Of a stretch of DNA of 64,000 nt, positions 8,926-22,797 are shown piece after piece. This stretch comes from Actinomycetota bacterium (GTDB lineage Bacteria > Actinomycetota > Geothermincolia > Geothermincolales > RBG-13-55-18), in the NCBI GenBank assembly GCA_014360655.1, contig JACIXC010000001.1, positions 17,173 through 81,172 on the forward strand, written 5' to 3'. Under the pieces are notes generated by a model. It did not search any database, was not told where the DNA came from, and was given only the letters and a program-made list of their open reading frames with translations. Positions within the stretch are counted from its first letter, which is position 1. Each line of letters starts with the position of its first letter. Made by a program: the position numbers and the translations under genes.

Positions 8926-9912
8926 TCACAAGAGCGACATGCCCCTCTCTTCCTCCACGCGCCTCCTCAGCTCGCGCAGGTTATGCGCGCCCGGTTCCCT
9001 CTGCCCCCTTTCCAGCTCCCTCACCAGGGAGAGCAAGGCACCCGTCACTGGTGCCTTCAGGCCATGCTCGCCTGCCCTTTCCAGCAACCTCCCGCACAGC
9101 CATTCCACCTCCGTGGCGGACCCACGCATGACGTCACGCAGCATGGGCGGTCGCACGCGCCGCCACACCGCCGCTTCCCAGGGCGAATCCTCGACCGGCA
9201 GCTCCACGCCGTGCAACGCGGCCACCCGCGCGCACTCCTCCGCCGCCTCGCGCGCATAGAAGGCCAGCTCCTCGCGCCACTCCTCGCGCGAGCGGAGGCT
9301 CTCGGGCGCTTCCCCGCACAGGCCGCAAAGGCAGCTCACGCCGGCCGCGTCACGGACCCTCCGCCACAGCTCCGGGCGTATGTCCTCCCGCAATCCGACC
9401 GCCGTCACCCCAGGGCCACCCAGGGTTTCCGAAAGCGCCGCCAGGCGCGAGGCGTTGCCGCCCTCCCGCATGCCGCCCAGGATCAGGGAGCGCACCTCCT
9501 CCACCCACACCTCGCCCTCCTCTCCCTCCTCCGCCGAGAACCAGGGCGCCGCCGCCACCGCCCTTTCCGCGCCCACCATGGCGGCGAGCTCCTCCGCCGC
9601 GAAACCTTCCTGCAGGGAGAGGTAGAGGGTGTCGCGGTGGACGAAGGGGCTCAGCGGCCGCAGCGCGTCCCCGGAATCTCCCGCCTTGACCGCAAGGACG
9701 ATGAGGTCGAAGGGGGCGTCCGCCTCCCCGGGCGAGTGTACCGGCAGCCCCTCCGCGACCTCGAGCGCCCCACGAAGGCGAATGCCCCGCGCCGCCAGTT
9801 GCTCCCTCCTGTCCTCCCTCCTCTCGTAGAGGTGCACCTCGCTTCCTCCCGCATGCAGCAGGTGGGCCACGAGGCTGCCCGCGGCTCCCGCTCCGATGAC
9901 GGCGATCCTCAT
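8926..9912 (-). CDS. 2-dehydropantoate 2-reductase family oxidoreductase (ApbA/PanE-like)
   Basis: 328 aa. N-terminal MRIAVIGAGAAGS Rossmann motif, ApbA-family length and C-terminal domain. Confidence 0.75.
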   Translation of the reverse strand: MRIAVIGAGAAGSLVAHLLHAGGSEVHLYERREDRREQLAARGIRLRGALEVAEGLPVHSPGEADAPFDLIVLAVKAGDSGDALRPLSPFVHRDTLYLSLQEGFAAEELAAMVGAERAVAAAPWFSAEEGEEGEVWVEEVRSLILGGMREGGNASRLAALSETLGGPGVTAVGLREDIRPELWRRVRDAAGVSCLCGLCGEAPESLRSREEWREELAFYAREAAEECARVAALHGVELPVEDSPWEAAVWRRVRPPMLRDVMRGSATEVEWLCGRLLERAGEHGLKAPVTGALLSLVRELERGQREPGAHNLRELRRRVEEERGMSLL

Positions 9913-10013
9913 TGCTCCTCCCGGGCCGTTTTTCTCATCCCTTCCCCAGCGCCTCCCGGAAACACGCGGCGCCGTGCCGCGCAGGATGACTTCGCGTCAT
10001 GCTCCCTGGCCCC

Positions 10014-11234
10014 TTACCGCCCGGCGGCGGGCTCCTGCGTGGTCGGCGCCTGCTCCTGCGTCCCGCCCAAGCCCGGGTCCTGCGGGCCCACGGGGGGTCC
10101 CTGCTCGGGCGGAGGTGGCGGCACCGGCTTGGAAGTCCAGATGAAGAGGGGGGTTCCCACTTTTACGTGGTCGAAGAGCTCGAGGATGGCCCAGTTGGCC
10201 ATCCTTATGCAGCCGTGCGAGTGGAGGCCCGGGACGAGGTTGCTGGTGCCGTGGATGAGCACCGTGCCGCCCGCGGCGCTGGTGACCAGGGCACGCACTC
10301 CCAGGGGGTTGTTCGGCCCCGGCTCGATGCGCGGCGGCATGTCCTTGGACCACTCCACGTTGGGGTTGATCCAGACCGGGTTCTCCTCCTTGCGGATGAT
10401 GTAATACTTTCCCAGGGGGGTTGGGTACTTGGGCTCTCCCGTCGCCACGTAATAGGTCTTCACCGGGGTGTCCTTGTTGTACCAGGTGAGGGTGTTGCCC
10501 ATGATGTCCACCACCAGCACCGTCTGCACGTCGTCGCTGGAAAGGGAGGGTGGCGTGACCACCACCACCGGCTCCACCACGCGGTTGCGTGAGAGCAACC
10601 CCTCCTCCACCGCCTTGAGCGTGGCCTCCACGTCCATCCACAGCCCGTCCCGAGAGGGGTGGAAGGTCAGCTTCCCGGTCTGAAAATCGAAGCTCAGCGA
10701 GGCGTTCACCACCTCGCAGTCGATGGCGGCGGCGATGTTGTTGAGCTTCTTCGCCAGCAGGTCCTTGTCGAGCGAGTACTCCAGGCCTATTTCGATGCTC
10801 AGTGGGCGGTTGAAGGCGCGGCGGAAGGCGCGCTCGAGCGCGGGCCGCTCCCATCCCTGGCGATAGGCCATGTCGACCAGGGATTCCACGTCCACGTTGA
10901 GGCCTATCTCCGCCGGGTTGATAACCCATTCCCGTTCCCGGTACCTGACGGTCAGCGGCGACATGAGGGGGGCCACGACCTCCTCCCGCACGCTCTCCAC
11001 CGCTTCATCCCGGGTCATTCCCGTCACGTCCACGCCCAGCACCACCGTCCTGGGGAACATCTCCCCGCGGTGGCGCGAGTCGGCGTACACGGACACGGCG
11101 GAAGCGAGGGCGAGGAAGGCCACCACCGCCAGGAGGACGATGAGCAGCCAGCGCACGACGCCGCTGCGCGGCTTCAGGAAGGATACCAGCTTCTTCCAGT
11201 TGCTCATCTTTCGGGCCATCATCTTCGGCATCAC
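10014..11234 (-). CDS. L,D-transpeptidase (YkuD domain), membrane-anchored, Pro-rich C-terminal tail
   Basis: 406 aa. N-terminal TM helix. YkuD catalytic motif LIHGTSNLVPGLHSHGCIRM. C-terminal PVPPPPPEQGPPVGPQDPG low-complexity tail. Confidence 0.8.
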   Translation of the reverse strand: MMPKMMARKMSNWKKLVSFLKPRSGVVRWLLIVLLAVVAFLALASAVSVYADSRHRGEMFPRTVVLGVDVTGMTRDEAVESVREEVVAPLMSPLTVRYREREWVINPAEIGLNVDVESLVDMAYRQGWERPALERAFRRAFNRPLSIEIGLEYSLDKDLLAKKLNNIAAAIDCEVVNASLSFDFQTGKLTFHPSRDGLWMDVEATLKAVEEGLLSRNRVVEPVVVVTPPSLSSDDVQTVLVVDIMGNTLTWYNKDTPVKTYYVATGEPKYPTPLGKYYIIRKEENPVWINPNVEWSKDMPPRIEPGPNNPLGVRALVTSAAGGTVLIHGTSNLVPGLHSHGCIRMANWAILELFDHVKVGTPLFIWTSKPVPPPPPEQGPPVGPQDPGLGGTQEQAPTTQEPAAGR

Positions 11235-11291
11235 TCCTTACCCGGTGCTCTTCCGGGGTTAGGACGCGCCGGGCCCCTTTTTCGTTCCACG

Positions 11292-11624
11292 CTACCACCT
11301 TTCCACGAACTGCTCGAAATAGCTGAGGAACGAGTATTCGGATAGGACCCGTTGCCGCTCCTCGTGCAGGGAGCGGATGTGCCTCATGTCGCGGGCGGCC
11401 CCCCTGCAGCCTTCTCCCTCGATGAGGGCGATCAGTTCGTTGTTGCGCCGCCTCAGCTCCTCCAGGCGCAGGTGAAAACCGGGGATGTGCATGGCCAGCA
11501 GCTCCTCGCCGCGGAAGCGCGCCATCGCGCGGCAGCGCGTGCACGCGAAGCACCCCGCTTCCTCCGTCTCCTCCGCCCAGGCGTCGCACAGGGGGCAACG
11601 ACGCCCGCTCTCCCCGTCCTGCAA
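11292..11624 (-). CDS. Hypothetical small zinc-ribbon protein
   Basis: 110 aa. CPLCDAW...CFACTRC paired CxxC. Clean intergenic placement. No family recognised. Confidence 0.4.
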   Translation of the reverse strand: MQDGESGRRCPLCDAWAEETEEAGCFACTRCRAMARFRGEELLAMHIPGFHLRLEELRRRNNELIALIEGEGCRGAARDMRHIRSLHEERQRVLSEYSFLSYFEQFVERW

Positions 11625-11873
11625 ATCTACCTCCCGTAAAACCGCCCACGTGCATTATCTCCCCTTGCACGCGGACATGCCATGACGCATCCCGCCCTGC
11701 CGCCACCGTAAAGCGCGGGCGGGAGGCTCGGCGCCCCCCGCCCCACGCGACGCTCTCCGCGGCCCCGCTTCCCCGCGCCCCTTACTCCTTTACTTGATCA
11801 CATCACTCCATATCGCTACACGGCGGCCACGGCGCCGTCCTACCCTTCCTCCTGTTCTTCCTCTAATGTTCTT

Positions 11874-13076
11874 CTATTCTTCCTCCGCCTGCTCGGGAAC
11901 GGGCCCTCCCCCCGCGAGCAACCCGACGATGAGCAGCAGGGCCCCGACGATGAGCAGCGCCCAGGGGATGTACACTTTGATGAGGTTGATCCTTCCCGCG
12001 CCCTCCCTAGCGTCTTCCGCGTTCGCCACGATGGAGTCCTGGATGGACGCATAGTCGTAGGAGAACACCTTGCTGGCCTTCCCCATCTGCGACTGCAATC
12101 CCGCCAGTTGCGCGATGACCGGCCCCAGCTGGGGATCGCTCGCATACTTGGCCAGCACACCCTGCAATTGGGACATGCCGCTGAGGTCGACCCTCATGGA
12201 GAGGGCCTCCGCGCTCTTGTACACGTCCACCGGTATGCCCGTCTTGGGGTCGACGGAAAGTTCCTGTTCCATGCTCCAGAGATACGTGATGGGTATCTTC
12301 GCCTGCAGCGCGGCGCCGAGAACCTGCCGGTCCTCGGCGGACATGACCCCCATCGCCAGGGAAACGAAGGCGTCCACGTCCAGACCCGCCGCCTTGAGGG
12401 TTTCCTTCATCTCCTCGATGGTGGTTTCACGGGGAAGACCCATGCTCTCGATGTACGCGTCCACCACCGGTTTTTCCTCGCAGGACATCTTGAAGTCATA
12501 GACGGTTACGTGTTCCTTCTCCTGCTCGTCCACGTATTCCGCCTCCAGGCCCTCGCCGATCTCGCTCTTCCAGAATGAATAGGTCTCGTCCTTGGAGGTA
12601 TCGAAGGTGAAGAAGGGGTAATACGAGCCCTCGCGATTCACCGTGTTGCGCGGATCCCAGGCATAGGCGCGGTCATCCTTGACGTTCTCCAACGTCTTGC
12701 GGTCGAGGGCGTAGACGAACTCCGCCGCGGGTTGTTTCATCCCTCCCATGCTGATGGTTATGGTCTCCTTTACCAGTCCGGTGGAGGAGTCGAACTCCTC
12801 CGCAAGGGTGGTGATCTTTTGTGTCACCTCGAGGGGCGCCTTTATCTCCTGGCCTTCCGGAAGCGGCTGGCGGCTGACCGGGTCTACGTACCAGGTGACC
12901 TCACCCTCGTACCGGTTCTCCACGTCCACGTCGCTGGGCAACTTCACCATGGCGTTTACGGCGATCGCCCACCAGAGTATGGAGGCCAGTATGAACAGTA
13001 TCCCCAGGACTATCAGGACCTTGCTTACCGCCCCTTTCATGACTACCTCCTTAAACACCGAAAACCCTCGCCGCAC
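11874..13076 (-). CDS. Membrane-anchored protein with N- and C-terminal TM helices (DUF3068-like topology, tentative)
   Basis: 400 aa. N-terminal TM VLIVLGILFILASILWWAIAV and C-terminal TM IPWALLIVGALLLIVGLLAG flank a large acidic extracytoplasmic domain. Family assignment is from memory of DUF3068 architecture only. Confidence 0.55.
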   Translation of the reverse strand: MRRGFSVFKEVVMKGAVSKVLIVLGILFILASILWWAIAVNAMVKLPSDVDVENRYEGEVTWYVDPVSRQPLPEGQEIKAPLEVTQKITTLAEEFDSSTGLVKETITISMGGMKQPAAEFVYALDRKTLENVKDDRAYAWDPRNTVNREGSYYPFFTFDTSKDETYSFWKSEIGEGLEAEYVDEQEKEHVTVYDFKMSCEEKPVVDAYIESMGLPRETTIEEMKETLKAAGLDVDAFVSLAMGVMSAEDRQVLGAALQAKIPITYLWSMEQELSVDPKTGIPVDVYKSAEALSMRVDLSGMSQLQGVLAKYASDPQLGPVIAQLAGLQSQMGKASKVFSYDYASIQDSIVANAEDAREGAGRINLIKVYIPWALLIVGALLLIVGLLAGGGPVPEQAEEE

Positions 13077-13335
13077 GTCTTGGCGGCGGTACGCTCCGCA
13101 ACTCCATTCTTACTCCTAGTCTATTTTCTATGCCGCAAGCGGACTTTCCTCCGCTTGCCCATCCTCTCTCACGCTCCCGTTTCCGCCGCTCCTGCCGTTT
13201 CGTTTCATGTAGCGTTAAAGACGCTTTGAAAAGACCGTAAAGACACGGCATTATTTTACCCAAAGCGCGGCCCGAATTCCTCCCCGACTGTCTTCACTCC
13301 GGCAACCTCCCCATATACCAAGGCGGGCGGCCCGG

Positions 13336-13590
13336 CTTCCGGAAGAAGCACATATACGCAACCACCAAGCCCGGGGAACTACAGGGTCGGTCGCAGCGAG
13401 CCTGCGAGCGAGACCGTTACCCTGAGGCCCCGGGCCGGAAGAAGGTACATATACGCAACCACCTAGCCCGGGGAACTACAGGGTCGGTCGCAGCGAGGAC
13501 GCCTTTCCCAAGGCCTCGGATCTACGAGAAAGGAACGCGGCGCCGAGCGAGACCGTTACCCTGAGGCCTGGCCGCTGGAAGAAGGAAAGG
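13336..13590. repeat. Two tandem copies of a ~100-bp intergenic repeat unit (family shared with 22914-23285); second copy carries a 45-bp insertion
   Basis: Unit about ggaagaagg-acatatacgcaaccacc(a/t)agcccggggaactacagggtcggtcgcagcgag-cctg-cgagcgagaccgttaccctgaggcc. Copy 1 at 13336-13429. Copy 2 at 13430-13568, with an insert between gcagcgag and cgagcgagaccg. Confidence 0.7.
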
Positions 13591-13601
13591 CCGCGCACCT
13601 T

Positions 13602-15833
13602 TCAGCGCGACATCCCCGGGGCGTATCCGCAATTCACGTGTCCCCCCACCCAGGAGCCGTTATAACGGAAGTAGATGGGCCGCTCCACCACGATTTCCCC
13701 CGTGGCGTGCACGGAAACGGACATGCCTTCCTGGTAGGGCGACATGCTGTTCAGGTAGAGGGTGGTGCGCGAGGAGGCGGGCAGCCGCACCCTCTCCATC
13801 ATCAGCTCGCCGCTCTCGAAGTGCAGCATGATCTCGGCCGAAAGCTCCACCGCGCCAGCATTCTGCAGGCACAGCCAGTCCTCGAAGCCGGGCCCGGTGT
13901 AACCCTCCGCCAAATACCAGTGGCGGGAGGGCGCCTTCACGCCCACGAGCACGTCGCCGCCCTTGCACCACTTACCGTAATCGTGGTAGATGCTCCTCTC
14001 GGCCACGAAGGGCCTCTCCCCCTCCATCTTGACGGAGACCTCCAGGTTAGCCCCCGCGCGCAGGTTGACGTTCACCGTGCGCCTGGAGAGAGGGGGCACG
14101 ACCTCCTCGTCAGCGATGTTGGCCCCGTTTCTGGTCTGGTACGTGATGCGCACGCGGTTGGGCGCCGTATCGGGGTTGAACAGGCACAGCCACTCCTCGA
14201 AGCCGGCTCCCGTGTATCCCTCGGCGAAGTACCAGGTGGTGGAGGGTTGATTGCTGCCGCCCGAGACGTGTCCCCCCGCCCACTGGTTGCGGTAGAGGAA
14301 ATACATGGGGCGCTCCGCGACCAGCGGGACGCCGTTCGTGGAGGTCACCCGCAGGGAGACATCCTTTCCCGGTCCCACCTTTCCGTTGACGAAGACGCTG
14401 TAGCGCCGCCTGGGCGCCAGGGACATGTCCTCCGAGAGGAGCAGGCCGGCCGGTGAGAGGTACTCGACCCTCGCCTTCGCCTCCGTATTCCCCGGGTTGA
14501 GCAGGCACAGCCATTCATCGAAACCGTCGCCGGTGTGCCCCTCGGCGAAGTACCAGGTGGTGGAGGGTTGATTGCTGCCGCCCGAGACGTGTCCCCCCGC
14601 CAACCGGTTGCGGTAGAGGAAATACATGGGGCGCTCCGCCACGATGGGGAGCGGGGAATCCACCACCAGGCTCACGTCCCGCCCCGCGCCCACCTGTCCC
14701 CCAACGTTGATGCTCAGCCGCGCCTCGGCCTCCACGCGGTAGGTGCGTGTGAGCGCCTCCCGGTCCTGGAAGAGGTACTGCACGCTGAAGTCCACGGGCG
14801 TGCCGTTGGGATTGAGCACGGTGAGCCACTCCTCGATCCCCGCCCAGGTGGCCCCCTCCGCGAAATACCATTTTCTGGCAGCAGAGGCCACGATGAGGTC
14901 CCGCTCCACCGCGGCGGTGCCGCCATCGCCGTAGTAGGCCACGGCCCGCAGGCGGTGTGTGCCGTCCCCCAGCGACGCGGTGTCCACATTGGTGCTGAAG
15001 GGGGGACCGCCGAAGCTCCGCAACAGCCCGCCGTCGAGGAAGAGGTCCATCCGGCTTACGGCCTCCGCTCCCAGCACCTGTAGGGAGACGTTGACGACAC
15101 CGCTCGATATGCGGTTCTCCTGCGGCTGGATAAAGCTTACGCGCGAGGGCATGCGTATGCCGCGCAGGATGGCCATGGCCTCCCGCGCCAGGTAGGCGTC
15201 ATCGCGCAGCAGTCGCTCCTGCGCGGGATTGGAGATAAAGGAGGCCTCGGTGAGTATGGCCGGCATGTTGGTGTTGTTGAGCACGCCGCAGTAGCCCACC
15301 TTTTTCACGCCGCGGTTGGGCAGCCCGAACTCCCCCACCAGCTCCGCCTGCACGGAGTTGGCCAGCTCCAGGGAGGCCTGGCTGGCGTATGTGGAAACCA
15401 GGGTCTCGGTTCCGTTGACGTTCGGGTCGTCCGGGTAGGCGTTGTGATGGATGCTGATGAAGCGGTCGGCCCCCCAGGAGTTGGCCATCTGCCAGCGCTG
15501 GGTGATGCTCACCGCGACGTCGCTCTCGCGCGTCATGAGCACCTGGGCGCCGTTGGCCAGGAGCAGGTCACGCAGCCTTAGGGCCACCTTGAGGTTGACT
15601 TCCTTCTCCTGCAGGCCCGTGGGGCCCACCGCTCCCGTCTCCGCCCCGCCGTGCCCGGCATCCACGCAGAATTTCCAGCCGCTCAGGGCGCCGGCGAGGG
15701 CGCGTTCTTCCCCGGCGGGCAGGCGGAGAGCGAGCGGGGAGAGCAACGCCAGGGAAGCGAGAAGGAGGCAGAGCGGGGCTGCCATGGCGCGGGACGCCGC
15801 TTCTCCGCGCGGACGGATTCCTTTACGGTGCAC
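13602..15833 (-). CDS. N-acetylmuramoyl-L-alanine amidase (Amidase_3) with four C-terminal tandem ~108-aa WYFAEG modules
   Basis: 743 aa. Signal peptide. Amidase_3 motifs CVDAGHGG...RFISIHHNA...TEASFISN. Then four repeats, each starting WY(F/L)AEG.TG.GFE.WL.L.NP (aa 321-743, nt 13602-14873). Confidence 0.85.
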   Translation of the reverse strand: MHRKGIRPRGEAASRAMAAPLCLLLASLALLSPLALRLPAGEERALAGALSGWKFCVDAGHGGAETGAVGPTGLQEKEVNLKVALRLRDLLLANGAQVLMTRESDVAVSITQRWQMANSWGADRFISIHHNAYPDDPNVNGTETLVSTYASQASLELANSVQAELVGEFGLPNRGVKKVGYCGVLNNTNMPAILTEASFISNPAQERLLRDDAYLAREAMAILRGIRMPSRVSFIQPQENRISSGVVNVSLQVLGAEAVSRMDLFLDGGLLRSFGGPPFSTNVDTASLGDGTHRLRAVAYYGDGGTAAVERDLIVASAARKWYFAEGATWAGIEEWLTVLNPNGTPVDFSVQYLFQDREALTRTYRVEAEARLSINVGGQVGAGRDVSLVVDSPLPIVAERPMYFLYRNRLAGGHVSGGSNQPSTTWYFAEGHTGDGFDEWLCLLNPGNTEAKARVEYLSPAGLLLSEDMSLAPRRRYSVFVNGKVGPGKDVSLRVTSTNGVPLVAERPMYFLYRNQWAGGHVSGGSNQPSTTWYFAEGYTGAGFEEWLCLFNPDTAPNRVRITYQTRNGANIADEEVVPPLSRRTVNVNLRAGANLEVSVKMEGERPFVAERSIYHDYGKWCKGGDVLVGVKAPSRHWYLAEGYTGPGFEDWLCLQNAGAVELSAEIMLHFESGELMMERVRLPASSRTTLYLNSMSPYQEGMSVSVHATGEIVVERPIYFRYNGSWVGGHVNCGYAPGMSR

Positions 15834-15984
15834 GCAAAATACCTCCCCACGGTCTCACTCACTGGGTTATTCGACGGCACGTGATGTAAACCTTTAGCAA
15901 CGCGCCACGCATGCCAACCCCACCACACGCTTGACGCCCGCCGGAGAAGCGCTCGCGCAAGCACCACGTGCACACCGGCCGCAG

Positions 15985-17301
15985 CTAACCGCCCAAGCCG
16001 GAAAGGAGGCGCAGGGCGTCGGGCTCATCCGGGTTTATGCGCAGGACCTCCCGGAAATCATCCAGAGCTCCCGCGATGTTGCCCCTCTTCTTCCTGCCGA
16101 GCCCGCGGGAAAGATAGGCGGGATAGTAGTCCGGGTTGAGGATGAGCGCCCGGTCCCAGTCGTCCACCGCCTCCCCCCAGGCGTTGAGCAGCGCATAACA
16201 CACGCCGCGCTCGTAGTAGGCCTCGGCCGACCCCGGGTTCATCCTTATCACCTGGTTGAAATCTCGTATGGCCCGGTTGTAGATGGGGTTGTCGTCGTAC
16301 TGTATCTTGCGCCGTAAGGCCTTGCCGCGCAGCATGTAAGCCTCCGGCAGGTCCTGCCGCACCTTCACCAGGCGGTCGAGGTCCTTGATGGCCGCCCGGT
16401 AATAGCCCCAGTCCATGAACAGCCTGGCGCGCCGCAGCAGGGCGCCATCGTCCCCGGGGTCCTCCGCGAGGACGCGGTTGAGTTCCTGCAGAAGCGCCCG
16501 GTCCTCCTCAGCCTTCAGGGTGTCGTTGGCCGTCCCCTCCTCCTCGCCCAGGAGCCCCACCAGCAACCCGACGACGGAGCGGGAACGCACCATGCCCATG
16601 TGGGTGCAGAGCCACCCGAGGCGGAGATTTTCCGCTCCCGGCAGGCAGCAATTGGTCCACGGCACCACGGCAAGATCCCAGGGCGTGCAGATGGAAACAT
16701 ACGGCAAGTCGTCCGCTCGAGGCCCTCCCCCTTCACGGGCGTTCAACTCCCCGAGGAAGGCGCTGCCCGGAAGGGCCTGCCGCGCGGCCTTGAACGGAAG
16801 GAAGAGGTAGAAGGTGTACGACCCGCCGTTGGGGGTTCCCAGCATGATCAACTTCTTCAGGTGATCCGCCCCGCCCATGCGCTCCACCGCGAACCTTGCC
16901 ACCAGTCCTCCCACGCCCTGCCCTATGATGGAGACCTTCTTTGCCCCGAGGAGGATGCGGAGCTCCTCCATCTTGTCAAGGAGTATGCGCGCCCCCCGGC
17001 GTATGTCACCGGCGCCGAAATTGGGAAGGCGCAGGGTGTAGATCTCGAAATCGAGGTTGCGCAGCCTGCGCCTGATGGCGGCGGAGAGGATGTAGAAGCG
17101 GAAGAACCCCGGAACGTAGAGGACGGGGTCCCTTCTCCTCGCCACAACGAGAGGCGCGGGAGACTCCTCCGCCGAATGCACCCGGCATTCCCCACGGGTC
17201 ACCGTCCTCCGCCGCAGGGGCTCCACTCGCTCCTCGTCTCTCTCGGCGCCCGAAGGAGTCGCGTATCCGTTCTCCCGCACGTCCTCACTTCTCTCCAACA
17301 T
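15985..17301 (-). CDS. Lipase-like alpha/beta-hydrolase fold protein (PGAP1/LipA-like) fused to C-terminal TPR repeats; nucleophile motif degenerate (GQGVG)
   Basis: Aligns to Bacillus LipA-type block AKKV.I..HSMGG...LGG as AKKVSIIGQGVGG...LGTPNGG, so the Ser and His of the AHSMGG motif are replaced. C-terminal about 180 aa form 4-5 TPR-like repeats. Start trimmed to ATG 17301 (SD AGGAG 9 nt upstream; the upstream part of the maximal ORF overlaps the neighbouring gene). Confidence 0.7.
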   Translation of the reverse strand: MLERSEDVRENGYATPSGAERDEERVEPLRRRTVTRGECRVHSAEESPAPLVVARRRDPVLYVPGFFRFYILSAAIRRRLRNLDFEIYTLRLPNFGAGDIRRGARILLDKMEELRILLGAKKVSIIGQGVGGLVARFAVERMGGADHLKKLIMLGTPNGGSYTFYLFLPFKAARQALPGSAFLGELNAREGGGPRADDLPYVSICTPWDLAVVPWTNCCLPGAENLRLGWLCTHMGMVRSRSVVGLLVGLLGEEEGTANDTLKAEEDRALLQELNRVLAEDPGDDGALLRRARLFMDWGYYRAAIKDLDRLVKVRQDLPEAYMLRGKALRRKIQYDDNPIYNRAIRDFNQVIRMNPGSAEAYYERGVCYALLNAWGEAVDDWDRALILNPDYYPAYLSRGLGRKKRGNIAGALDDFREVLRINPDEPDALRLLSGLGG

Positions 17302-17464
17302 CGGCCAGCTCCTGCTTCTACCGCATACACTCACGCCGAACGTTTCCACCGCATATATATATTCGGCGCGAGGGCCCCGTTGACATGAGCCCCGGAACCG
17401 CCGCAGGGCCGCCGGTGGGTGTGCCGGGTCCTGGCCGGAAAGGCCGGAAAGGATACCGGGGAGG

Positions 17465-18784
17465 TCAGCGGGCAAGCAGCGGGGGGATGCGGGCGGTGGT
17501 GCGCCGCAGGCGCGCCATGGCCAGCAATAGCGCGGACTCCCAGGGCGGCAGGGGCACCATGGAGATGGGGTTTATCCCCATGAGGGGCGTGAGCGAGGCC
17601 AGCACGTCCCGGAGGTTGTTGCAACCCCACGCCACCCGCAGCGCTTTCCTTCCCAGCCTGCGGAGCAACGCCGGGTAGGCCTCCTCGGCCGCGCAGTCCC
17701 CCACCACCAGCACCCTGCCCTCGATCCCTTCGAGGGTCTCCTCGCGCCATCCCTTTCCCATGCATATGGTGAAACCGCCCTTCCCCTTGAAATCGACGTA
17801 GAGCATCTGCAGTACCATACGCGTGTTCAGGGAACAACCCTCGCGGCAGCACCTCTCCTCCCCCTCGAGGATGCGCACGTCGGGAGGGTAGACGGGGAGC
17901 AGCTCCGGGGTGTAGCGGCGCCAAAAGGGCTCCCGGTCGCCTATGACCTCTATGTCCGCAAGGTCGATGCAACCCAGGCCCTCCGCGGCGGAAAGCCGGA
18001 GGTGCTCCACCCTGGCGGGATCTATGCCCAGGAGATCTGCCCCCACGGCATCCACCGCCAGCGTATCGTCCCCTCCCAGGAGCACGCCCAGCTCCTCCAC
18101 GCACTCCCCGGCCAGCCCCTGGGGCGCGTAGTGGCCGTGGTTCAGGGCGTGCAGGCCCTCGATGACCGTGAAGTCGGGCCGCACCAGCATGTAGATGTCC
18201 GCGAACTTGCGGTGCAGCATCCAGTTGTGGTCGCGGATGCGGTCCTCCTGCATGACCAGGCCGAACTGGTTCTTCACCCCCAGGGTGACGGTGGCCATGG
18301 AATGGGTCTTGAGCTTGGGAAGGGAGATGTATAGATTGTCATCCCTTTTCTCCATGAGCCTTTCCCTGACCCAGCGCGAAACGCGCACCCGGTAGCCGAG
18401 TGTGGGCAGGGTGACCTCCACCTGCTTCCCCTCGTCCAGGTAGAGGGGTATGCCGCCCGCCTCCCGGGTCGCCCGCGCCAGGCCGCTCACCCGGAACACC
18501 AGGCGTGTGAAGTTGCCCTGGGTGCAGTTGTCCATCACGTACACCCTGCGTGCCCCCGCCTCCAGCAGCAGCCTCACCAGGGCCGAGACCGCCCTCGGGT
18601 CGGTGTGACAATAGGGCTTGAAGTCTACGGCGTTGACCTTTATGAAGGCGTCGCGCCTGCCGCCCAGGAGCGACGAGAGGCCTCCGAAGTGACTGAATAT
18701 CTCGACCATGCCCTCCCGCAGATCATCCCCCGCGGCAGCGACAACCACCCTGGGCATCTTTCCTCCTTTCCCGGGAACCGTCAC
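17465..18784 (-). CDS. DUF362-domain protein (paralog of 6149-7243, no ferredoxin domain)
   Basis: 439 aa. FIKVNAVD ... LPKLKTHSMATVTLGVKNQFGL matches the other DUF362 copy motif-for-motif. C-terminal Cys-containing extension. Confidence 0.75.
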   Translation of the reverse strand: MTVPGKGGKMPRVVVAAAGDDLREGMVEIFSHFGGLSSLLGGRRDAFIKVNAVDFKPYCHTDPRAVSALVRLLLEAGARRVYVMDNCTQGNFTRLVFRVSGLARATREAGGIPLYLDEGKQVEVTLPTLGYRVRVSRWVRERLMEKRDDNLYISLPKLKTHSMATVTLGVKNQFGLVMQEDRIRDHNWMLHRKFADIYMLVRPDFTVIEGLHALNHGHYAPQGLAGECVEELGVLLGGDDTLAVDAVGADLLGIDPARVEHLRLSAAEGLGCIDLADIEVIGDREPFWRRYTPELLPVYPPDVRILEGEERCCREGCSLNTRMVLQMLYVDFKGKGGFTICMGKGWREETLEGIEGRVLVVGDCAAEEAYPALLRRLGRKALRVAWGCNNLRDVLASLTPLMGINPISMVPLPPWESALLLAMARLRRTTARIPPLLAR

Positions 18785-18831
18785 CCCCCACGCGCCGCGC
18801 GTGGGGGTCGCTGGGGAGCGGGAAGGTCCCG

Positions 18832-19221
18832 CTATTCCCGGCAGGCCACCGCCGCCAGTTCCACACGGAACCTCCCGGGCAGGGCCACGCCCACCGCCGA
18901 ACGCGCGGGATAGGGGGGCCGGAAGAATTCCTCGTAGACCTCGTTGAAGGCCGAGATCTCACCGATATCCGCGAGGAAGACGGTCACCGCGAGCACCTTG
19001 TCCATGCCGCTTCCCGCAGCCCGAAGAACCCTCTCCAGGTTGCGCAGCACCACCATGGCCTCTTCGCGCACGTCCCCCGTCACCTCGCCGCCTTCCTCTT
19101 TTACCGCGAGCAGGCCGGAGACGAAAACGAGCCCGTTCCACGCCACCGCGTGCGAATAAGGGCCGCGCGCGGGCGGCAGCCCCTCACCCGCGAAAGCCGT
19201 AATGCCGGACACCTGCGCCAT
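18832..19221 (-). CDS. ridA: RidA/YjgF/TdcF family reactive-intermediate deaminase
   Basis: 129 aa from ATG 19221: MAQVSGITAFAGEGLPPARGPYSHAVAWNGLVFVSG...PARSAVGVALP. The listed maximal ORF (to 19548) has a repeat-derived spurious N-terminus. Confidence 0.8.
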   Translation of the reverse strand: MAQVSGITAFAGEGLPPARGPYSHAVAWNGLVFVSGLLAVKEEGGEVTGDVREEAMVVLRNLERVLRAAGSGMDKVLAVTVFLADIGEISAFNEVYEEFFRPPYPARSAVGVALPGRFRVELAAVACRE

Positions 19222-19440
19222 CACCCCCCTCACGCAGTCTTTTCCCGCAGTATAACAAAAGCTTGTGCGCCGTATAACCCCCGCCCCCCACCGGCTTTCC
19301 CGCCTTCGGCACGAACATGCCTCCCGACGCCTGGTTCTTCGGGGACGGGAAGCGACCGCGGGCGGCGGGGTCGGCGGCCGCCCCGGAGGGAGGCGAGCAG
19401 ATGCGACACGGGTGTGGCCGCCGGGTGTGAAACGCAGGGC

Positions 19441-19555
19441 GGGTGCGTGCGAGGGAATCCACGGCAAACGCATGGATACGAGGAGGGAATTGCGGCAGTG
19501 GGCGCGGCTCTCCCAGGGTGCGTGCGAGGGAATCCATGGCAAACGCATGGATACG
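19441..19555. repeat. Two 40-bp direct repeats separated by a 35-bp spacer, each with an internal 7-bp-stem hairpin
   Basis: gggtgcgtgcgagggaatcca(c/t)ggcaaacgcatggatacg at 19441-19480 and 19516-19555 (1 mismatch). Embedded ATCCATG-GCAAACG-CATGGAT hairpin. A degenerate third half-copy lies upstream (gtgaaacgcagggc). Confidence 0.75.
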
Positions 19556-19578
19556 GCGGGAACCTCCGGGCACGAGGG

Positions 19579-20115
19579 TCAACGCAACACCCTTGTGATC
19601 ACCGGCCGGTAGGAGGAAGCCCCCCTGGTGCCGGGGGCGTACACGCGCGCCAGCAGGAGATAGGAGAGGACGAGGAAACCGAAGCCGAAGAACAGTCCAA
19701 GCGGCACGGCGAATGCGCCGTCGAAAAGCACGGCGGAGACGAGCGCCGCGACGCCCAGGCCCGCCAGGAAGGCGGCCAGTGGTAGCCCGTAGAGGATATA
19801 GGCGGCCTTGAGGGAGGTCCTGAAGGGGAGTTCCACCTCTACCCTGTCACCCACCCCGGCACCCGCCTCGTTCAGGGCCTCGGCCAGCATTTGTCCTTCA
19901 CCTGCAACCACGCAGCAGGACCCGCACCCCTCGCACTGCCTGCCACGTGGGATGAGCACCTCGGCCAGCTCCCCCCGCACGGCTATCACGGTGCCCTCCT
20001 CCCGCCTGCCGTGCCCGTCCCCTCCCGCAAGGCGCCTCCAGGACGCCTCCGTCGCGCCGTCCCTCTCCTCCACCTTCAACCTCTCCTCTTTACCGGCGGT
20101 CTCCACGCAACACAC
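19579..20115 (-). CDS. RseC/MucC-like (SoxR-reducing system type) membrane protein
   Basis: 178 aa. Cytoplasmic GTVIAVRGELAEVLIPRGRQCEGCGSCC Cys cluster followed by two TM helices, the RseC_MucC architecture. Starts 9 nt after the copA stop. Confidence 0.55.
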   Translation of the reverse strand: MCCVETAGKEERLKVEERDGATEASWRRLAGGDGHGRREEGTVIAVRGELAEVLIPRGRQCEGCGSCCVVAGEGQMLAEALNEAGAGVGDRVEVELPFRTSLKAAYILYGLPLAAFLAGLGVAALVSAVLFDGAFAVPLGLFFGFGFLVLSYLLLARVYAPGTRGASSYRPVITRVLR

Positions 20116-20124
20116 GGTATTATC

Positions 20125-22797
20125 TTACCCCGCTTCCGACCTCGCCTTCACGGCGCCCATTCTCCCCACCTCGCGGAACCGGCGCAGGCGCAACGAATTG
20201 CTCACCACCGAGACGGAGCTGAAGGCCATGGCCAACGCGGCGTAGACCGGGTTGAGCAGAACCCCCCACAGGGGATAGAGCACCCCCGCGGCCACGGGAA
20301 TGCCCACCACGTTGTAGAAGAAGGCCCAGAAGAGGTTCTGCCTGATGGTGCGCAGGGTGGCGCGGGAAAGGGTCACGGCGGCGGCTACCTTGCGCAGGTC
20401 GTCGGAGATAAGGGTGATGTCCGAGGCCTCCAGGGCCACGTCGGTGCCGCTCCCCACGGCTATGCCGATATCCGCCTGTGCCAGGGCGGGAGCGTCGTTG
20501 ATGCCGTCGCCCACCATGGCCACCACCCTGCCCTCGCCCTGCAGTCGCTCTATCTCCCGCGCCTTCTCCCCCGGAAGGACCTCCGCCAGGACCCGCTCCA
20601 CCCCCGCCCGGCGCGCAACCGCCTGCGCGGAGGAGAGCCGGTCCCCGCTGAGCATGGCCACCTCGATCCCCAGCGCGCGCAGGGCACGCACGGCCTCCAC
20701 AGCCGTGTCCTTGAGCGCATCGGTAACCGCCACCAGCCCCCAGAGTTCTCCGTCCAGGGACACGTAGACCACCGTCTTGCCCTCACGCGACAGCCTCTCC
20801 GCCTCTCCCTCGAGACCGCGCGTGTCCACGCCGTTTTCGGACAGGAAGGCGGAGTTGCCCAGCAAAGCCCTCGCGCCACGCCAGGCGGCAGCCACCCCCT
20901 TACCTGGAAACGCCTGGAAATCGGATGCCTCTCCCGGGGTTATCCCCCTCTCTTCGGCTTCCCGCACCATGGTCTCCGCCAGCGGGTGCTCACTCCCCCG
21001 CTCCACGGTGGCCGCCAGGAATAGCAGCTCCTCCTCGCTCCTCCCCTCCGCGGCGAGGAGGTCGCTCACCTCGGGCCTTCCCCGCGTTAGGGTCCCCGTC
21101 TTATCGAAGACCACGGTATCAAGCCTGCCGGCTCTCTCCAGCACCTCTCCTCCCCTGATGAGAATCCCCATCTCCGCGCCCTTCCCCGTGCCCACCATGA
21201 TGGCGGTAGGAGTGGCCAGCCCCAGGGCGCAGGGGCAGGCGATGACCAGTACGGCCACGAAGTTGAGGAGGGCGAAGTTGAAGGACGGCTCCGGTCCCGC
21301 CAGCAACCAGGCCAGGAAGGTCACCGCCGCCATACCCATGACCGCGGGGACGAAGACGGCGGCCACCCTGTCTGCCAGGCGCTGCACGGGCGCCTTGCTG
21401 CCCTGCGCCTCCTCCACCAGGCGTATGATCTGCGCCAGCACCGTGTCCCCTCCCACCCGCGTCGCCCGGAAGCGGAAGGAGCCGGTGCCGTTGATGGTAG
21501 CCCCGGTGACCTCGTCGCCGGGCCCCTTCTCCACCGGAAGCGGCTCGCCGCTCAGCATGGACTCGTCAACGCTGCTGCGGCCTTCCAGGACCACACCGTC
21601 CACGGGGATCTTCTCGCCGGGCCGCACCACCACGACATCCCCCACCTTTACCTCCTCCACCGGGATCTCGACCTCTCCATCGTCCCTGACCACCCTCGCG
21701 AGGCGGGCACGCAGGCCCATGAGGCGCCTTATGGCCTCCGAGGTGCGCCCCCTCGCCCTTGCCTCCAGGAAGCGCCCCAGCAGGATGAGGGCGATGATGG
21801 TGGCGGAGGCGTCGTAGTAGACCGCAAGCTCGAGACCGGTGCCGCTGATGAAAGAGGGGAAGAAGGTCGCCACCACGCTGTAGGCGTAGGCGGCGGTGGT
21901 CCCCACCGCTATGAGTGTGTTCATGTCCGTGGTCCCATGGCGCGCCGCCCGCAAGGCCGCGCGATAGAAGGTCAGGCCCGGCCCGAACTGCACCGGCGTG
22001 GCCAGGGCGAAGAGCAGGTAGAAGAGGGTCCGCTCGGGGATATCCCTCAGTCCCGGGAGGTGCATGCCGAGCATGGACAGGAACATGATCACCGCGGCCG
22101 ATGCCAGGCTGTAGATGAGCTTCGCCCGCAACACGCGGCCCTCCCTCTCGCGGCGCCGCCTCTCGCGGTCGAGGGGTTCCTCTCCCTCGCCGGGAGGCAG
22201 CAGCCTGTATCCCGCCGCCTCCACGGTGCGGGCCATCTTCTCGTAAGAAGCGATTGCGGGGTCGAAGACGACGGCAGCCCTCTCCGTGGCCAGGTTGACG
22301 TCCGCGCTCATCACCCCCTCCACCCCGCCGAGGGCCTTCTCCACGCGCGCCACGCAGGAGGCGCAGGTCATGCCCTCCACGCCGAAGACCGCCTTCTCCA
22401 GCCCTGCCCGGTAGCCCAGCTCCTCTATGACCTTCGCCATCCCTTCCGCGCTCACCTTGTTGGGCTGGTAGGATATGGTAGCTTTCTCGGAAGCCAGGTT
22501 CACGGACACCTCCTCCACCCCCGGCAGGTCCCTGAGGGCCTTCTCCACCCTGGCGGTGCAGGAGGCGCAGGTCATGCCGCCCACCCTGATGACCAACCGG
22601 GAGGCGTCACCACCGCTCCCGCTCTCTGCCTTCTCCCCGCCCGCGGCGACTTGCTCTTCTTGCTCCTCGCTCCCGACCCCTGTGCGCTTCATCTCCATCA
22701 TCTCCAGACCCGCTCGCGCCACGCCTCCGTGAGCCCCCGGAAGCAGACTCAGAATCCCTCTTCCGCTCAACTCCCGCTTTTCAAGCGCGACTTCCAA
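20125..22797 (-). CDS. copA: Copper-translocating P1B-type ATPase with two N-terminal HMA domains
   Basis: 890 aa. Two GMTCASC heavy-metal-associated motifs. TM CPC motif ([12 protein letters not shown]). DKTGTLT phosphorylation site. GDGINDAP hinge. Confidence 0.9.

Follow-up and report, generated by a model that had tools for sequence, protein, structure and literature searches.

Minimal bacterial lipases of the Lipase_2/LipA type, such as Streptomyces MAS1 (5h6g/5h6b), Lip_vut1 (6nkc), and Bacillus subtilis LipA (1i6w), provide the structural reference for a gene found on the minus strand of the 64,000-nucleotide stretch of DNA analyzed here (hereafter the window; contig JACIXC010000001.1 of assembly GCA_014360655.1, from an Actinomycetota bacterium), which encodes a protein joining a lipase-like N-terminal domain (N-domain) to C-terminal tetratricopeptide repeats (TPRs). 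These lipases and the lipase-fold/TPR protein have in common the strand–elbow–helix x-x-G-x-x-x-G-G-L, the GTP(N/H)xGS loop, and the positions of the catalytic Asp and His, whereas the latter has Gly for the nucleophile Ser, Gln for the His preceding it, and PG for the HG motif, lacks a signal peptide, and carries the TPR domain at its C-terminus. Non-catalytic proteins with an α/β-hydrolase fold are documented in plants as well as in animals. The plant proteins EDS1, PAD4, and SAG101 combine an N-terminal lipase-like domain with a C-terminal all-helical domain and function without the need of lipase catalysis, SAG101 being devoid of the triad; they are, however, related to class 3 lipases, contain an EP domain instead of TPRs, serve eukaryotic immune signalling, and share no homology with the lipase-fold/TPR protein beyond the fold. 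Neuroligins carry Gly at the nucleophile position. Together with glutactin, gliotactin, and the ChEL domain of thyroglobulin, they represent the well-documented animal proteins in which a triad-less hydrolase fold has been kept for binding (PMC5943944), the same principle as that proposed below, but they are eukaryotic and extracellular, belong to the type-B carboxylesterase family, have no TPR, and, the fold apart, show no sequence relationship to the lipase-fold/TPR protein. Escherichia coli NlpI, a TPR protein tied to peptidoglycan hydrolases (PMC7049810), is a functional analogue only, being a periplasmic outer-membrane lipoprotein without a lipase-like domain.

The 438-residue translation contains each of the motif strings quoted in a preliminary description of this DNA (AKKVSIIGQGVGG, LIMLGTPNGG, and VPGFF), the first of which includes the nucleophile elbow with Gly129 at the position of the catalytic Ser and Gln128 at that of the preceding His, the double replacement to which that description had drawn attention. 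With the N-domain as query, a word-index search retrieved 52 orthologues with 50–94% identity (52–92% over the N-domain), mostly about 410 residues long and all TPR-tailed, from metagenome-assembled genomes of Actinomycetota, several of them named Candidatus Solincola, and also a handful of TPR-less proteins of 270–310 residues with a [GA]-H-S-[ML]-G-G elbow and an HG oxyanion motif. Among the 50 aligned full-length family members, to which all counts out of 50 refer, Gly129 is present in every one and Gln128 in 48, the elbow reading G-Q-G-x-G-G in 48 and G-M-G-L-G-G in two. The elbow GHSMG, which the preliminary description had envisaged that orthologues might reveal at this site, is seen in none of them, and Gly also occupies the position in two deeper subfamilies. 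These emerged from an exhaustive profile search of 1.84 billion representatives, which gave 29,876 relatives with E <1e-3; in the best 153 of the 29,876 relatives' domains, the nucleophile column holds Ser 146 times and Gly seven times, the Gly domains being fragments or representatives of the main family, the TPR-fused proteins P0130 (elbow L-C-Y-G-A-G-G; source label 'Candidatus Geothermincolia bacterium') and P0178 (I-C-L-G-E-G-G), and two TPR-less membrane-anchored proteins. A further search seeded with P0130 recovered a second subfamily (P0209–P0216) with the elbow C-[YF]-G-A-G-G. The N-domain of P0178, used as the query of a word-index search, gave no match, not even to P0178. As for the two membrane-anchored proteins, P0134 and P0165, their elbow is A-H-G-[ML]-G-G, with the HG motif, Asp, and His kept, and they stand for an apparently independent Ser-to-Gly loss.

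The derived character of the family becomes clear when its 50 members are compared, column by column, with 147 active-type relatives, the closest TPR-less ones. Position 129 is Ser in 100% of the active-type proteins (147/147) and Gly in 100% of the family, so that the Sm-x-Ser-x-Sm elbow of serine hydrolases after strand β5 is replaced by G-Q-G-V-G; position 128 is His in 95% and Gln in 96%, respectively; position 64 in the oxyanion loop is His in 88% and Pro in 94%, PG(F) thus standing in the family where serine hydrolases have HG(G) after strand β3; position 233 is Gly in 81% and Thr in 86%; and position 84 is Gly in 91% and Asp in 100%. The derived residues P64, S73, G129, L117/L118, and W230 are common to all three TPR-fused subfamilies, which speaks for a single ancient loss of the Ser rather than repeated decay. 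The existence of a Ser-less lipase fold fused to TPRs is thus upheld by the orthologues, by the deeper subfamilies, and by the uniform presence of Ser in the 147 TPR-less relatives, and the view taken in the preliminary description, of a probable scaffold or binding protein rather than an enzyme, is supported with it. Scanning contigs with the pattern G[QH][GS][LM]GGL[VI]AR mostly yielded active GHSxGG hydrolases of Streptomyces and comparable genera, and one true member (L011), and gave no taxonomic breadth for the family, which, as far as source names show, seems to be confined to Candidatus Geothermincolia (Actinomycetota).

That GGC (Gly) is one base away from AGC (Ser) might be taken to mean that the Gly results from a mistake in the sequencing or assembly of an otherwise active lipase gene, or that the gene is a decaying pseudogene. 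We give next to no credence to either idea, both of which are refuted by the presence of Gly129 in all 50 members and of Gly in the deeper subfamilies: the open reading frame (ORF) is intact, the same architecture and the identical Gly recur in more than 60 full-length homologues from independent assemblies, many residues have stayed invariant in proteins that are about 50–60% identical in pairs, and the fusion partner has been conserved as well. In the N-domain, some 48 residues are shared by 48 or more of the 50 sequences, the pairwise identity of which ranges from 51 to 94%, and these residues cluster on loops (G65, G127–G132, G155–S161, D209, P214, and W230–G236). Judging from the canonical topology and the predicted secondary structure, these loops would lie at the C-terminal ends of the strands, namely, on the former active-site face. 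The family thus shows what defines a pseudoenzyme, an essential catalytic residue having been lost and the loss fixed in orthologues under continued purifying selection on the domain; because the Ser loss is fixed while the N-domain has been maintained in this way, the domain is very probably not a serine hydrolase, as far as can be deduced from the sequences. Other serines considered as alternative nucleophiles were rejected, Ser240 and Ser161 because the active outgroup with the elbow Ser also has Ser240 and Ser/Thr at 161, and Ser73 because, although clade-specific, it is situated in helix A, outside the active-site loops.

The fold was examined in an AlphaFold2 model of the full-length protein (pLDDT 86, pTM 0.84), calculated from an alignment of 57 sequences; when the full-length protein was compared with PDB sequences or by Foldseek, generic TPR matches swamped the results, and searches restricted to the N-domain and a second model were used instead. 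A β/α domain spans about residues 55–255 and has the central parallel β-sheet and flanking helices of the α/β-hydrolase fold, superposable on known members, and is, on the evidence of the model, a genuine lipase-type domain. By Pfam cut-offs, only TPR families rise above threshold, and no α/β-hydrolase family is reached by the N-domain, the best score being that of Palm_thioest (19.8 bits; cut-off 26.8), with Abhydrolase_1 (15.7; 25.8), PGAP1 (12.8; 24.3), and DUF676 also below threshold and Lipase_2 not reported. A phmmer search of the PDB with the N-domain gave an E-value of 1e-5 for Streptomyces lipase MAS1 (5h6b/5h6g) and values of 1e-3 to 3e-2 for LipA-type and Pseudomonas/Burkholderia lipases (0.03 for B. 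subtilis LipA), and no curated NCBIfam family covers the N-domain. The likeness to LipA-type/PGAP1-like lipases put forward in the preliminary description accordingly holds for the fold and the motifs, but the sequence similarity is weak and below every Pfam cut-off. The closest relatives of the N-domain are TPR-less actinobacterial hydrolases of the PGAP1/Palm_thioest/DUF7379-like type (e.g., P0053, P0063, and P0066; 33–39% identity), which share with it the RRRL helix, the GDIR loop, GGLVAR, and the Asp and His positions, but keep HG and [GA]-H-S-x-G-G, often have membrane-anchored N-termini, and in no case possess the TPR tail or the amidase gene context described below. In the 1476-residue relative P0061, the minimal hydrolase domain occurs three times, each time in a form that looks active ([AC]-H-S-E-G-G), with repeated β-rich modules between the copies.

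The C-terminal region is a TPR domain, Pfam TPR families covering residues ~265–435 with E-values of 1e-18 to 1e-15 and with scores far above the cut-offs (TPR_11, 66.9 bits against 26.8; TPR_1, 63.5 against 27.8; TPR_2, 55.3 against 27). The four to five repeats initially counted correspond in the AlphaFold2 model to four helix hairpins (residues 285–422) and a capping helix, the second hairpin having a 12-residue insertion, and Foldseek matches this region to the TPRs of MamA, CTPR, and OGT. The stretch Y-D-(D/E)-N-P-I-Y-N of the insertion in the second repeat is among the best conserved of the whole protein and is kept in P0130 and P0178. Identity to these two distant members is 51% and 55%, respectively, over the TPR domain and 39% and 34% over the lipase-like domain, which in them is no closer to the family than is that of the active TPR-less relatives (33–39%). 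The TPR domain is thus even better conserved than the lipase-like domain, and its surface should matter no less than the latter. At the other end of the protein, residues 1–25 have pLDDT <50, and the tail carries a weakly conserved (E)R-x-L-x-R-K stretch at about residues 31–37. In the model of the whole protein, residues 31–40 (window 17182–17211) adopt a short strand and helix with a pLDDT of 89, and residues 36–54 have pLDDT <50 in the N-domain-only model, whose first residue is 36; according to the model, residues 31–40 may dock onto the TPR domain. A reading of the protein as a STAND/NLR-like defense factor (effector–NTPase–TPR) was dropped, as Pfam detects no NTPase domain, a single linker helix connects the two domains, and the PADLOC defense-system models give no match.

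The loss of the catalytic triad expected from the preliminary description is confined to the nucleophile Ser, since the residues aligned with the acid and the His of Lip_vut1/LipA, located on the loops after β7 and β8, are retained: Asp209 is found in 46 of the 50 members (Glu in three more) and His234 in all 50. In their neighborhood, W230 is present in 50/50 and Cys232 in 49/50 (Ser in the lone exception), and the second subfamily P0209–P0216 keeps D209, C218, W230, C232, and H234. With such a set of residues the protein could still be an enzyme, using either Cys232 as a nucleophile with His234/Asp209 or the His234/Asp209 dyad for activation of water or a substrate in the style of a cofactor-independent oxygenase; the change of Ser to Gly would free room at the elbow beside His234, and the α/β fold is reported to be able to support nucleophile-independent chemistry (PMC10548524). 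We nevertheless consider this unlikely, because P0178 has Lys at the triad-His and His at the triad-Asp position, and in P0130 positions 232 and 218 are occupied by His and Ala, respectively, with the architecture and gene context intact in both; Cys232 also occurs in about 6% of the active-type relatives having Ser (e.g., P0063) and may just line the pocket; and the His of the oxyanion loop is gone. To our knowledge, moreover, no α/β hydrolase with an off-elbow nucleophile has been described, which counts further against an enzymatic role.

Cys218 and Cys232, both clade-typical, together with His234 and Asp209, would equally make up a classical ligand set, and the gene for a heavy-metal P-type ATPase adjoins the lipase-fold/TPR gene or is found near it in several genomes, as would suit a metal-binding or redox-sensing site coupled to partners via the TPRs. 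This appears distinctly improbable, inasmuch as the two Cys residues do not co-vary, position 218 being Ala/Ser in three members that keep C232 and neither Cys being present in P0130, and the ATPase gene is missing from the vicinity in L008 and L010.

Neither a signal peptide nor a lipobox nor a membrane segment was detected in any of the 52 members. The 19-residue Kyte–Doolittle value peaks at 1.3–1.6, on the β-strand of the core that leads into the elbow; N-terminal membrane segments with values of 2.1–3.2 occur in several active TPR-less relatives. From the lack of a hydrophobic segment, the lipase-fold/TPR protein is predicted to be soluble and cytoplasmic, unlike the amidase and the L,D-transpeptidase encoded downstream, which are exported. 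The proximity of these exported cell-wall enzymes and a weak similarity of the TPR region to NlpI might invite the assumption that the protein itself is exported and acts beside the amidase as an NlpI-like TPR adaptor. This is very improbable, however, as the NCBIfam NlpI model NF008391 scores only 34.1 bits against a cut-off of 250, and the N-terminus, which has neither a lipobox nor a hydrophobic segment, is charged and disordered.

Taken together, we consider it reasonably probable that the protein is a non-catalytic lipase-fold/TPR adaptor or regulator in the cytoplasm, tied to an envelope module. In the proposed scenario, the nucleophile Ser (to Gly), the His of the oxyanion loop (HG to PG), and the His in front of the nucleophile would have been lost in a single ancestral event before the members diverged, after which purifying selection would have kept the N-domain, its best-conserved parts being the elbow, the GTPNxGS loop, Asp209, and W230-x-C232-x-H234. 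Because the loops of the former active site are the best conserved in the N-domain, this face has most likely been reused for the binding of a small ligand, possibly a lipid, or of a partner protein, and the four-repeat TPR domain would supply a second, peptide-binding surface. With these two surfaces, the protein may serve as a cytoplasmic adaptor/regulator of the module formed by the amidase, DUF3068, zinc-ribbon, and L,D-transpeptidase proteins. The analysis demonstrates the fold, the replaced motifs, the conservation of the family, the TPR fusion, the lack of export signals, and the linkage of the genes; we infer the lack of catalysis, the binding at the former active site, the adaptor/scaffold role, and the link to cell-wall remodelling.

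The gene order is as follows (Table 1). Downstream of the lipase-fold/TPR gene and on the same strand, the genes for the amidase (Amidase_3/DUF5719), the DUF3068/PorA-family protein, a 110-residue protein, and the L,D-transpeptidase (YkuD) succeed one another in the window and in loci L001–L005 and L008, and in L010 the order is preserved up to PorA and a small ORF, after which the contig stops; L008 and L010 are loci of the distant members of the family. Counted over every locus read far enough downstream, the amidase gene lies directly 3' in seven loci and, in L005, after two inserted genes. The upstream neighbor varies, being the DUF362 gene, the P-type ATPase gene directly, the trp operon (L008), or a small ORF (L010). 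The DUF362 gene itself is full length (439 residues) in the window and in L003, encodes 187–197 residues in L001/L002 (7024–7617), and is absent in L004, L005, and L006; it is a variable neighbor outside the conserved module. The envelope-gene neighborhood noted in the preliminary description is thus confirmed by Pfam for Amidase_3 and YkuD and is conserved downstream, but DUF362, though indeed present, is neither an envelope gene nor a conserved neighbor. The 110-residue protein has a CPxC...CxRC zinc ribbon, ends in F-[VI]-[ED]-[RK]-W, and contains no membrane segment; its gene is always located between those for DUF3068/PorA and L,D-transpeptidase (L001, 13429–13761; L008, 12433–12771; L010, 7228–7512), and the protein is a candidate ligand of the TPR domain. 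A member of the DUF3068/PorA family, mycobacterial PgfA (MSMEG_0317), is periplasmic and essential, coordinates the trafficking of lipids, and is needed for polar growth (PMC9678360), and a DUF3068 gene was found in a Corynebacterium envelope screen (PMC7775120). It is because of the constant downstream order of amidase, PorA, zinc-ribbon, and L,D-transpeptidase genes that an adaptor role in an envelope module is proposed, and the linkage supports such a role. In the amidase, the Amidase_3 and Big_7 domains are followed by four or five repeats of ~95–115 residues with the motif WYFAEG-x-T-x-x-GF-x-(E/D)-WL-x-L-x-NP, one of which is recognized as DUF5719. Farther upstream, between the RseC-like and RidA-like genes, there is a 40-nt direct repeat (19441–19480 and 19516–19555; 98% identical, 75-nt spacing).

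Table 1 Features of the lipase-fold/TPR gene and its surroundings in the window (coordinates of the forward strand; residues numbered in the 438-residue protein).
Feature	Position	Strand	Basis and remarks
Heavy-metal P-type ATPase gene (HMA + E1-E2_ATPase)	20125–22797	−	
RseC-like gene	19579–20115	−	
RidA-like gene	within 18832–19548	−	
DUF362 gene	17465–18784	−	Pfam; 439 residues
AT-rich run, AATATATATAT on the coding strand	17353–17363	−	52–62 nt 5' of ATG; likely −10 element
Shine–Dalgarno-like AGGAG	17309–17313	−	Read from sequence; 7-nt spacer to ATG
Lipase-fold/TPR fusion, coding sequence including stop	15985–17301	−	ORF list and sequence; 438 residues
N-terminal tail, residues 1–50	17152–17301	−	Conservation profile; mostly disordered, poorly conserved
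α/β-Hydrolase domain (lipase class 2/LipA/MAS1-like) without Ser nucleophile, residues 55–255	16537–17139	−	
Oxyanion loop V-P-G-F-F, residues 63–67	17101–17115	−	His of HG motif replaced by Pro64
Nucleophile elbow G-Q-G-V-G-G, residues 127–132	16906–16923	−	Codons GGG CAG GGC GTG GGA GGA
Asp209, triad-acid position	16675–16677	−	phmmer alignment to Asp of Lip_vut1/LipA
Cys218, clade-typical	16648–16650	−	47/50 members
C232-T233-H234, His234 at the triad-His position	16600–16608	−	Alignment
Linker helix 258–280, four TPRs 285–422, capping helix 427–435	15994–16530	−	Pfam, AlphaFold2, Foldseek
Y-D-D-N-P-I-Y-N loop inserted in the second TPR, residues 335–342	16276–16299	−	Conservation profile
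Exported N-acetylmuramoyl-L-alanine amidase gene (Amidase_3 + Big_7 + DUF5719-like repeats)	13602–15833	−	Pfam; N-terminal signal-like segment
DUF3068/PorA-family membrane protein gene (PgfA family)	11874–13076	−	Pfam, synteny
Gene for 110-residue zinc-ribbon + coiled-coil protein	11292–11624	−	ORF; seven orthologues aligned, those of L008 and L010 among them
L,D-Transpeptidase gene (PG_binding_4 + YkuD), N-terminal membrane anchor	10014–11234	−	Pfam, synteny

Several observations weigh against a purely non-catalytic adaptor of this module or qualify the case for it. The retained Asp209 and the invariant His234 would be needless in a pure scaffold and leave room for residual or altered chemistry. 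The replacement of HG by PG, correctly noticed in the preliminary description as the altered VPGFF and prevailing in the family, is not diagnostic alone, because the relative P0065 pairs PGF with GHSLGG. A cytoplasmic protein cannot contact the exported amidase directly, so a membrane-spanning intermediary must be assumed. Finally, the syntenic block downstream also holds unrelated genes (ApbA and an AMP-binding enzyme) and all the genomes belong to one class, and the linkage may therefore partly reflect inherited gene order rather than functional coupling. A more far-reaching proposal, to which we assign only a slim chance, is that the active-site face has been rebuilt from Cys232/His234/Asp209, with or without Cys218, as a thiol nucleophile or as a metal, redox, or lipid sensor, the state of which the TPRs would relay, for example, by capturing the C-terminal tail of the zinc-ribbon protein, to control the amidase/L,D-transpeptidase module from the cytoplasm.

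The lipase-fold/TPR gene starts with the ATG at 17299–17301. A longer ORF from TTG 17475 was rejected, as it would overlap the upstream DUF362 gene and receives no support from the orthologues. The TATATAT box originally located about 50 nt upstream was found again as the AT-rich run listed in Table 1, and a TATAcT/TATAAT-like hexamer occurs 45–90 nt 5' of the gene in the window, L003–L006, L008, and L011; in L008, it sits within the 3' end of trpA. A scan for the sigma-70 consensus did not call the AT-rich box as a promoter. The hexamer is likely a conserved −10 element and suggests, from its recurrence in these sequences, that the gene has its own promoter. On the minus strand, no terminator was predicted between the lipase-fold/TPR gene and the amidase gene, and an Rfam scan of 9500–20500 gave a single sub-threshold match, ASdes (E 0.39), which falls within the PorA gene; no riboswitch or leader is thus indicated in this range.

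Our literature searches revealed no described bacterial example of the lipase-fold/TPR type. The proteins reported here make up a new, lineage-restricted pseudoenzyme family, a finding that is well supported and solid but modest, since it does not introduce a new principle. What the family offers is a clean bacterial case, with one ancient loss of the nucleophile followed by strong conservation, a fixed TPR fusion, and a persistent association with a cluster of cell-wall genes. Automatic annotation is misleading for this family: its members are labeled at source as 'triacylglycerol esterase/lipase EstA' or 'pimeloyl-ACP methyl ester carboxylesterase', names that are probably wrong about activity. 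The gene also points to an uncharacterised five-gene envelope module, including a PgfA relative, in the uncultured class Candidatus Geothermincolia. If the proposed rebuilding of the active-site face were true, the protein would exemplify a novel type of inside-out regulation of peptidoglycan remodelling, in an actinobacterial class that branches deeply; if the adaptor hypothesis is true, the family would show how, in a Gram-positive lineage, a cytoplasmic protein takes part in controlling an amidase that is exported.

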